DNA of 42,367 bases, taken from assembly GCA_947085925.1 (NCBI GenBank), contig CAMTYI010000030.1, forward strand, positions 1-42,367, written 5' to 3'. This document shows positions 11,757 to 13,201 of this stretch, in pieces. How positions within the stretch are numbered: position 1 is the first letter of the stretch; each line of letters opens with the position of its first letter. Made by a program: the position numbers and the translations under genes. Origin of the DNA: an uncultured Gammaproteobacteria bacterium (lineage in GTDB: Bacteria > Pseudomonadota > Gammaproteobacteria > Ga0077554 > Ga007554). Below the pieces are notes generated by a model. That model was not told the origin of the DNA, ran no database searches, and saw nothing but the letters and a program-made list of their open reading frames with translations.

Positions 11757-13156
11757 GACGCATCAAACGTATTCATTTTGTAGGCATCGGCGGCGCAGGC
11801 ATGAGTGGCATCGCGGAGGTGCTGCATAACCTGGGCTATCAGGTGTCCGGTTCGGATGTACATGAGAATGCCGCAACGCGCCGCCTGGCAGAGTTGGGTG
11901 TTTCCCTCTCGCTGGGCCACAGTGCGGAGTGCATCAACGGGTGCGACGTGGTGGTGACCTCCACCGCCGTGCGCGCCGATAATCCCGAGGTGATCGAGGC
12001 GCAGCGTTTGCGTATCCCGGTGGTGCCGCGTGCCGAAATGCTTGCCGAACTGATGCGTTTCCGCCAAGGCATTGCAGTGGCGGGCACTCACGGCAAAACC
12101 ACCACCACCAGCCTGGCCGCCAGTCTGCTCGCCGAGGGCGGACTGGATCCCACCTTTGTGATCGGTGGACGGCTCAACAGCGCTGGCGCCAACGCCCGTC
12201 TCGGCGCGGGCCAATATCTGGTGGCCGAGGCCGACGAGAGCGACGCATCATTTTTGTATTTACAGCCGATGATTGCCGTGGTGACCAACATCGACGCCGA
12301 CCATATGGAGACCTACGGTGGCGATTTCGGGCGGCTGCGCCAGACCTTTGTCGAGTTTCTGCACCACCTGCCCTTTTACGGGCTGGCGGTGTTGTGCCTG
12401 GATGATCCGGTGGTGCGCCAGATCCTGCCGCAGGTGACACGTCCGGTGATTACCTATGGCATCGGTGAGGATAGCGGCGCGGATATTTTCGCCAGCGATA
12501 TTCGCCAGGAGCAGGATCGCACCTACTTCACCGTGTCCCGCCCCGGTCAACGCGATTGGTTGACGGTCACCGCGAATCTGGCGGGCCGCCACAATGTGCT
12601 CAACGCCTTGGCGGCGATAGCCATCGCTCATGAAGTGGATGTTGCTGATGATGCGATTCTGCGCGGTCTGGCAGGGTTCCAGGGCGTCGGGCGGCGTCTC
12701 CAGAATTACGGCGAGATCGACACCCCTGCGGGCAGCGTGCTGATGATCGACGATTATGGTCATCATCCGCGCGAGGTCGCCGCCGTGGTGCAGGCGATTC
12801 GCGCCGGCTGGCCGGAACGTCGCCTGGTTGTAGCATTTCAGCCACATCGCTACACGCGCACCCGCGACCTGTTTGAAGACTTTTCCAAGGTGCTCTCCGA
12901 GGTGGACGTGCTGGCGTTGGTGGAGGTGTATCCCGCCGGTGAAGCGCCGATTGCCGGGGCCGACGGGCGCACGCTATGTCGTGCCATCCGGGCACGCGGC
13001 CATGCCGACCCCGTGTTCGTGGAACGTGTTGCCGAACTGCCGGAAACGCTGGCCGGGCTGCTGCGCAAGGGCGACATCCTGCTCACGCTGGGCGCAGGCG
13101 ACATCGGTGCAGCGGCGGCGAAATTGCCGAAGCAACTTAAAGACTTGATGACGTGA
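11753..13156 (+). CDS. murC: UDP-MurNAc:L-Ala ligase
   Basis: [36 protein letters not shown] 11753 overlaps the murG stop. Confidence 0.98.
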
Positions 13157-13161
13157 TGGCA

Positions 13162-13201
13162 TACCCATGAAGGGCACAATGTACCCATGAAGGGCACAAT
13201 G
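13162..13201 (+). repeat. Two exact tandem copies of the 20-mer TACCCATGAAGGGCACAATG
   Basis: 13162-13181 equals 13182-13201; a 17/20 inverted copy lies at 41623-41642. Confidence 0.95.

Follow-up and report, generated by a model that had tools for sequence, protein, structure and literature searches.

A 20-nucleotide repeat, probably a mobile element, stands in tandem at the start of murB in an uncultured gammaproteobacterium

The usual view is that mobile DNA requires at least two recognisable ends. Elements of the IS200/IS605 family have hairpins close to both ends, and their insertion follows a fixed word of 4-5 bases; the Rickettsia palindromic elements (RPEs) are about 100-150 bp long. 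The small dispersed repeats (SDRs) of Nostoc and its relatives, 21-27 nt in length and reportedly the subject of Elhai et al. in 2008, are said to appear inside conserved sequence and to nest in each other, and we know of no enzyme for them. Extracts of two accounts (PMC4390886, PMC3116915) present SDR4, SDR5 and SDR6 as dispersed repeats of about 20-27 nt that insert precisely at defined spots, SDR5 sitting between the third and fourth base of HIP1 (PMC4390886), and extracts of another (PMC3733652) place RPEs inside open reading frames (ORFs), where they keep the frame, and mention, from Di Nocera et al., families of repetitive extragenic palindromes (REPs) with long, self-complementary loops. 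Here we analyse a 42,367-nt stretch of DNA from an uncultured Gammaproteobacteria bacterium (assembly GCA_947085925.1, contig CAMTYI010000030.1; the window), in which a 20-nt sequence, TACCCATGAAGGGCACAATG, stands twice in tandem between murC and murB. We consider it likely that these 40 bases are two copies of a 20-nt non-coding mobile element that is spreading in its genus and occurs in distant phyla as well. The 20-mer appears to belong to a known but little-studied kind of very small mobile repeat, and the core of the interpretation holds: a mobile 20-nt element lies at the start of a gene presumed essential, in zero, one or two copies among relatives.

How does the 20-mer compare with these systems? 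Like the SDRs, it is dispersed in many copies (37 in the window's genome), is present or absent at orthologous sites (zero, one or two copies between murC and murB; zero, one or at least two in a PAP2-family phosphatase gene) and nests in itself; the likeness is one of description. Its host is a gammaproteobacterial genus and not a cyanobacterium, its unit is 20 nt, and, unlike the SDRs, it prefers the hairpin loops of REPs and its own loop, spans several phyla and carries a stop/restart cassette. With the "peel and paste" elements of the IS200/IS605 family and their miniatures it shares the absence of target duplication, strand specificity and dependence on a hairpin; it seems to differ from them in having one hairpin and, in place of a fixed word, a leaning towards A at position -1. 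It resembles the RPEs as a small palindromic repeat tolerated in genes that stay functional; since, however, it disrupts the frame and brings a new start with it, only the 5' end of a gene should tolerate it. REPs, their REPIN doublets and the REP-associated tyrosine transposases (RAYTs) offer a further parallel, namely short dispersed hairpin repeats with a covarying stem whose single-stranded hairpin is the likely substrate (PMC3116915; PMC3733652). The 20-mer lives inside GTAG-headed REPs, always oriented as the REP head; the REPs with self-complementary loops in the extracts of PMC3733652 may represent the same kind of nesting. Unlike REPs, however, it has no GTAG or CGTC tag, beginning with T-N-CCC and ending in CAATG around a stem of only 5 bp, and unlike REPINs it forms direct tandems and nests, not inverted doublets, with none beside the two Y1 transposase genes of the window's genome.

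By direct reading, the two copies are identical and occupy 13162-13181 and 13182-13201. The junction runs from the murC stop TGA (13154-13156) through an ATG (13156-13158), GCA and the two 20-mers to CAC CAC CAA CCA, and the successive overlaps TGATG, ATGA and ATGA place every stop over the next start. An earlier note on this DNA, made from the sequence alone, had described a chain of overlapping mini-ORFs leading from MAYP* to MKGTMYP* to murB; that chain is present exactly as claimed, and the in-frame starts that the unit was said to supply can be read directly at murB. Tandem Repeats Finder delimits the repeat at 13162-13205, with period 20, 2.2 copies, 95% matches and a score of 81. The unit cannot be rotated, as the base before it is A and its own last base G, while the base after it is C and its own first base T. 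Three matches to the 20-mer at up to three mismatches lie in the window, where 0.00 are expected from 100 shuffles. The gene murB, whose product (P0001) matches PF01565 and PF02873, has a single match in the window's genome and is presumed essential.

Beyond the junction, the 20-mer is one member of a dispersed family. The window's genome contains 36 matches at up to three mismatches and none to the reversed pattern, with exact copies outside murB on contigs C20 (position 4922) and C45 (position 386). The consensus, T-N-CCC-RTRAA-GGG-N-A-CAATG, comprises a 5-bp hairpin with an RTRAA loop and a CAATG tail, and the corresponding degenerate pattern, with at most one mismatch, finds 37, 33, 22, 10 and 5 copies in the five genomes of the genus, the first figure being that of the window's genome. 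With only loop and tail held fixed, four or five Watson-Crick pairs form the stem in 53 of 95 matches, against 0 of 14 in the reversed control. Compensatory pair types occur at three of the five stem positions (TA 40 and CG 11; CG 32, GC 11 and AT 3, plus 15 showing an A-C mismatch; CG 38 and AT 17), and the murB copies are of the A-C mismatch type.

Comparison of filled and empty paralogous repeats in the window's genome gives a difference of exactly 20 nt with no duplicated flank, and the full 20-nt block is present at every filled site for which an empty copy is available. One REP variant, GTAGGGTGCGTCC^CACGCACC (with ^ at the insertion point), occurs empty 11 times and filled by the 20-mer at least twice. 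About half the copies of a hairpin element of ~150 nt that resembles a miniature inverted-repeat transposable element (MITE), with inverted-repeat termini CTACTGTGTCACAAAGCG...CGCTTTGTGACACAGTAG, hold the 20-mer at GCA^AGGC. Other 20-mers lie within or beside the loops of 20-mers, as in cacccgtgaa^TCCCCGTAAAGGGGACAATG^gggcgcaatg, again with empty paralogues. Yet another copy (G000:C10:1206-1225, minus strand; cctaaa^unit^aaaagcgacggcg) interrupts the A-AAA-AAG programmed-frameshift site of an IS3-family transposase on contig C10; the terminal ATG of this copy is in frame with a 298-aa ORF resembling orfB. The note's proposal of an inserted mini-element, as opposed to duplicated native sequence, is upheld by the dispersed family and by empty alleles without the unit. 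A simple tandem duplication of native sequence was rejected on the exact copies on C20 and C45 and on the empty alleles, from which the unit is entirely missing. MITE features (terminal inverted repeats, target-site duplication, a length of 70-300 bp) were not found in the 20-mer, filled and empty sites differing by exactly 20 nt, and a title-level search of the literature on small and mobile repeats, including substrings of the motif, found no description of it.

Among the relatives' murC-murB junctions, copy number varies as the note had anticipated. One relative of the genus, G003, has exactly one copy (GTGATGGCG + unit + CACCACCAG); G004 and G002 have none (GTGATGGCCATGCACCAG), and G001, likewise with none, also lacks the first ATG (GTGATAGCCATGCACCAG). 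A maximum-likelihood tree of the 3.9-kb locus joins the window's genome (G000) and G003 as sisters with support of 98/98. The most parsimonious history would have one copy entering the junction in the common ancestor of these two and G000 alone later gaining an adjacent second copy. Farther out, a sister genus (five genomes) shows TGATG-NNN-ATG-CAG or something close to it, and in the other sister genus (two genomes) a GTG overlaps the murC stop and an ATG is retained directly before the Q codon. A metagenome scan for junction alleles returned one contig, empty and G001-like. The metagenome run that holds this locus best, X1, also contains a strain with an empty junction at a depth similar to that of the window's strain: it shows 6 differences in 95 nt (~94% identical) at depth 22 and joins 13160 to 13205 through CATG, which is the empty allele. 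At the genus level, the MurB N-termini in the protein collection read MAMHQPP, MMAMHQPP or MAMRQPP, and that of the window MHHQPP. The outcomes that the note had listed as contrary to its reading did not occur: relatives start MAMHQPP- or MAMRQPP-like, contigs back both copies, and the 20-mer is dispersed.

The ancestral start requires some revision. Cutting out 13162-13201 does leave ATG GCA CAC CAC CAA in frame, as had been said, but the MAHHQP proposed as ancestral is contradicted by the empty alleles, which read MAMHQPP or MAMRQPP; they run ATG GCC ATG CAC CAG, with ATG CAC where the filled alleles have CAC CAC. Since the empty alleles all share this form and one of them lacks the first ATG, the second ATG is the native start of murB, conserved across the family, and the terminal ATG of the last element copy lies exactly there with respect to the codons downstream. 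The insertion, which the note had placed between codons 2 and 3, can equally well be assigned to the 5-base spacer before the native second ATG. The ATG at work at 13199 may come from the element or be native to the gene.

The degenerate pattern at up to one mismatch was found in 5 of 31 genomes, all five of the genus, with controls all at 0; the 26 genomes from other genera gave no match. Sampling the class evenly yielded 4 matching genomes out of 401: three belong to the genus and have many copies, and one other has a single match. An exact-pattern scan with one genome per species gave at least 106 stretches, with several copies per genome in unrelated metagenome-assembled genomes (MAGs); those among the matches listed include Ruminococcaceae, Thermomicrobiales, Candidatus Xenobia, Candidatus Berkiella, Woeseiaceae and other Gammaproteobacteria. 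Also among the matches listed, the loop of a host hairpin is the copy site in the Ruminococcaceae, Thermomicrobiales and Woeseiaceae MAGs and in some of the other gammaproteobacterial ones. The REP of the Ruminococcaceae MAG has the 22-nt empty form in 19 of 23 instances and measures 42 nt, the same REP plus a 20-mer, in the other 4, and another gammaproteobacterial MAG has inserts in 10 of 66 REP matches, some with a shorter loop. One gammaproteobacterial MAG also carries relatives of 18-19 nt with a shorter loop (…CCCCATGCGGGGACAATG). Letter-for-letter identity in MAGs of Firmicutes, Chloroflexota and Proteobacteria suggests either that the element has spread horizontally or that the enzyme mobilising it is very conserved.

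Where does the element land? Insertion favours sites that follow an A (GCA^, RTRA^AGG) and the loops of other hairpin repeats. Of 54 copies, 36 have A at position -1, and positions +1 to +3 are often AGG. Flanks that pair into a stem of at least 7 bp surround 4 of 54 copies, compared with 0.16% of 20,000 random positions. Among 27 copies with a flank stem of at least 5 bp, 15 have a GTAG REP head upstream on the same strand and 0 show the opposite orientation, a count that covers the window's genome together with loci from unrelated MAGs and at least 5 different REP families. The window's genome has two GTAG-headed REP families, GTAGGGTGCG... and GTAGGTTGGGTC.... At C88:10611-10650 (L148, 1612-1651) a tandem pair whose copies show 1 difference stands at a synteny break; its flanks map apart in all four relatives of the genus (142 kb in G004), which may be a rearrangement at a repeat copy.

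The element lands as an exact 20-nt block, in one orientation and without duplicating its target. Single-strand enzymes of the HUH/Y1 class are known for exact blocks, no target duplication, use of a hairpin, strict orientation and a preference for hairpin loops. The exact block, the absence of target duplication, the hairpin and the 15:0 orientation suggest this single-strand cut-and-join class, and by analogy we tentatively propose that a RAYT-type HUH/Y1 enzyme acting in trans may move the element. Two RAYT-like Y1 ORFs of 180 and 186 aa are present in the window's genome (G000:C59:10354-10668 and C147:677-985), with weak matches to PF01797 of 25.6 and 21.7 bits; no copy of the 20-mer was found within 1.5 kb of either. 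The relatives have 9 (G001), 5 (G002), 10 (G003) and 9 (G004) Y1_Tnp matches. On contig C59, one empty copy of the MITE-like element lies ~150 nt upstream of the RAYT-like gene.

Why would such an insertion be tolerated at the start of an essential gene? From its codons, the 20-mer in phase 0 is predicted to be a stop/restart cassette: TNC CCR TGA would end the incoming frame, the overlapping RTG would restart it, and AAG GGN ACA ATG would carry the frame out codon-aligned. If it lands in phase 0 close to a gene's 5' end, the element would truncate the incoming frame and restart the remainder, and MurB would be made as MKGTMHHQPP... or MHHQPP.... The PAP2-family phosphatase gene (Pfam PAP2, E 6.5e-20) offers a second case. 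It is uninterrupted in G001 (MKMQDTRLSLWVS-WGVPAIA..., 258 aa); in G004 one copy lies between codons 13 and 14, where the old frame ends MIIQDTRPSHWTSYP* and an open frame of 250 aa restarts as (V)KGTM-WGVPAIA...; in the window's genome a tandem pair is present and the gene starts MKGAK-WGLPAIA.... The restart in G004 lends independent support to the note's claim that the element brings its own start. Other copies are in frame with moeA, hisA, a cytidine/adenosine deaminase gene and an outer-membrane efflux gene, each lying some dozens of codons upstream. Their positions are probably 5'-untranslated, and such frame matches do not exceed chance.

Overlapping stop and start codons such as TGATG and ATGA couple translation in operons. 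A TGATG overlap joins murC to murB in the empty alleles of two relatives, and the filled allele keeps an unbroken chain of overlaps; unlike textbook coupling, this chain passes through two element-encoded mini-ORFs of 4 and 7 codons. The native murB starts of an empty relative pair poorly with the anti-Shine-Dalgarno sequence (-0.9 and -1.9 kcal/mol), which fits a dependence of native murB on coupling to murC through TGATG; the element's AAGGG reaches -4.5 kcal/mol, and neighbouring genes of the dcw cluster -2.9 to -6.6. AAGGG precedes the terminal ATG within the same copy by 3-4 nt, a short distance. With two copies, the AAGGG of copy 1 stands ~11 nt before the internal ATG of copy 2 (13187), the same motif and spacing as at ftsA, and the second copy may thereby improve the spacing at murB. 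The junction sequence is consistent with the re-initiation that the note had suggested; the ribosome may be handed on through the two mini-ORFs or may initiate afresh at AAGGG, and the data favour neither route. Either way, the stop and start signals of the element probably keep murB translated. At murC-murB and in the PAP2 gene, then, the element appears to replace native coupling or a native start with its own stop, start and ribosome-binding signals in essential or conserved genes. For annotation, this means that starts and N-termini beside such repeats are easily miscalled, murB itself having two candidate starts, at 13187 and 13199.

Several observations weigh against parts of this account. 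At murB, no single clean insertion yields the filled allele, though the net difference is exactly 20 nt per copy. Single-event scenarios were tried with the insertion before the native ATG and loss of one ATG, after it and loss of CAT, or with the native ATG retained, each with an extra CAC; every one of them calls for one to three additional small changes, and none is preferred. Should the terminal ATG be the native start, retained, the ATG brought by the element would be superfluous at murB. Nor is the element generally tied to gene starts: of 55 copies, 5 (9%) have a terminal ATG that begins an ORF of at least 80 aa, the share among all 7467 genomic CAATG being 13%, and in the four relatives an ORF of at least 70 aa is opened in 11 of 60 distinct copies. 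Among the Pfam-scanned candidates in relatives, known domains begin 21-285 residues further in, and only in murB and the PAP2 gene does a copy abut the conserved N-terminus; a general role as start-codon donor was rejected on these grounds. On the side of the enzyme, Y1 transposase genes occur in 11 of 13 genomes searched, including sister genera without the element, and are uninformative as its marker, being present in genera with and without it. An all-against-all BLAST of 564 ORFs from 47 regions (2.5 kb) found no gene family in three or more regions near copies, and there is no fixed target tetranucleotide beyond the preference for A at -1. Finally, REPs can multiply with their insert, so the filled copies are not all independent and the orientation count represents fewer than 15 events.

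That the tandem pair is an artefact of assembling a MAG strikes us as barely credible. The window's genome is a draft of 205 contigs, 85% complete, and the 20-mer is repeated in it, with contigs breaking around the repeat; yet independent k-mer contigs of X1 (from Logan), identical to the window, bridge the junction at a depth similar to that of its flanks. Contigs covering 13066-13188 run from murC through copy 1 to the start of copy 2 (depth 27), and others covering 13166-13240 run from copy 1 through copy 2 into murB (depth 27). Both sides of the copy junction being bridged, the two-copy state is not an assembly slip. Logan contigs are not raw reads, and rare copy-number variants lie beyond their reach; among the matches listed, no one-copy junction contig was found. 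The independently assembled sister genome, moreover, has the same element at the same place. We also think it very unlikely that the 20-mer is a motif selected by its hosts, a protein- or RNA-binding hairpin or a translation operator conserved for its usefulness. Identity across phyla, the covarying stem and the Shine-Dalgarno-like AAGGG and start codons inside the unit would all suit such a motif. They are set against copies nested in REP loops and in the loops of other copies, sites, both paralogous and orthologous, at which filled alleles have empty counterparts, the copy inside the IS3 frameshift site, gene starts that are not enriched for copies, and the failure to find the element in the otherwise similar genomes of those sister genera that were searched. 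The unit's hairpin is weak as RNA (-3.5 kcal/mol), the junction folds no better than shuffles (z from -0.43 to 0.64, the upper value again counting against a functional fold), and Rfam gave no match at E up to 1 in four copy-holding loci totalling 12,080 bases; a reading as RNA-structure regulator was rejected on the hairpin and the z values.

The other two alternatives accept a mobile element and concern its history and its enzyme. The second murB copy could stem from a single insertion followed by local tandem duplication, through replication slippage or unequal exchange, which we regard as possible though rather doubtful. In its favour, the copies match each other exactly, the sister genome holds a single one, and 20-nt direct repeats can expand by slippage. 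But the duplicated block coincides exactly with the boundaries of the element, and the sole microhomology, ACC (one base inside the unit), predicts C at the copy junction, where T is observed. Tandem pairs elsewhere are unlike: the C88 pair has its 1 difference, that at C45:366-405 has 3, and there is a further pair at G003:C13:2705-2744. At C45, in the PAP2 gene, the upstream copy equals the murB copies and the gene-proximal copy differs at 3 bases, which fits a fresh insertion beside an older copy. Such pairs favour insertion beside a resident copy. Alternatively, the element may be mobile by another route, such as template switching at hairpins in the course of replication or repair, a different site-specific single-strand DNA nuclease or an RNA intermediate; this too we hold open as a possibility of less than even weight. 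No Y1 gene is linked to copies, Y1 genes do not follow the distribution of the element, and the element has a single hairpin and no fixed target word. Site-specific single-strand nucleases tied to hairpin repeats do exist, as extracts on the Ssn family describe (PMC11893778), although the Ssn-related motif given there, HGTCWY..., does not fit the 20-mer consensus on either strand by eye. The exact block, the missing target duplication and the 15:0 orientation with REP heads are hallmarks of single-strand cutting and joining, and they speak for the HUH/Y1 class that we have proposed.

A bolder synthesis, which we offer as speculation and judge unlikely to hold in every part, would make the 20-mer one of the smallest mobile DNAs known: a single hairpin moved in trans, as single-stranded DNA, by a RAYT-class or other HUH enzyme, exchanged between phyla, and shaped for harmless landing in phase 0 by its TGA stop, RTG restart and AAGGG-N4-ATG, with the second murB copy retained for its ftsA-like AAGGG spacing of ~11 nt. 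A 20-nt unit that has one hairpin and inserts as an exact block would lower the size limit of mobile DNA and provides a defined substrate for finding its enzyme. The coordinates of the junction features and of the copies discussed above are collected in Table 1.

Table 1. Features of the murC-murB junction and copies of the 20-mer elsewhere. Bare positions refer to the window; handles beginning with C, G or L denote contigs, genomes and loci.
Feature	Location	Strand	Remarks
murC (UDP-N-acetylmuramate-L-alanine ligase) ORF	11732..13156	+	Pfam Mur_ligase, Mur_ligase_M, Mur_ligase_C, E 5.5e-31 to 2.1e-17
Mini-ORF 1, ATG GCA TAC CCA TGA (MAYP*)	13156..13170	+	ATG overlaps murC stop; stop within copy 1
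Copy 1 of the 20-nt element, TACCCATGAAGGGCACAATG	13162..13181	+	Unit boundaries are those at clean empty/filled sites elsewhere
Mini-ORF 2, ATG AAG GGC ACA ATG TAC CCA TGA (MKGTMYP*)	13167..13190	+	Stop overlaps ATG at 13187
Copy 2 of the 20-nt element	13182..13201	+	Identical to copy 1; only in this genome, sister G003 having one copy
murB (UDP-N-acetylmuramate dehydrogenase) ORF	13187..14104	+	305 aa, MKGTMHHQPP..., from the internal ATG of copy 2
murB, alternative start	13199		Terminal ATG of copy 2, in frame; MHHQPP..., 301 aa, as in the protein collection
ddl (D-alanine-D-alanine ligase)	14108..15025	+	Next gene of the dcw cluster; Pfam Dala_Dala_lig_C, E 6.9e-55
Third family member in the window, TCCCCGTGAAGGGGACAATG	41623..41642	-	No long ORF across it
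MITE-like element, empty copies	C4:2710-2880, C6:16030-16200, C59:10170-10330, C188 (two)
MITE-like element, filled copies	C49:7862, C134:4794, C171:7369, C186:2850, C40:15252
In-frame copies upstream of moeA, hisA, deaminase and efflux genes	L181 (G003:C5:89273), L191 (G003:C17:52953), L206 (G001:C36:19190), L223 (G004:C9:1609627)
Identical 20-mer (e.g. TACCCGTGAAGGGCACAATG), Ruminococcaceae MAG	L047, L052, L054, L091, L107
Identical 20-mer, Thermomicrobiales	L044, L088
Identical 20-mer, Candidatus Xenobia	L078, L114
Identical 20-mer, further loci	L103, L086 and others

Directly preceding the window's third family member is ...catgtgaa, which resembles the left half of an older copy of the element.

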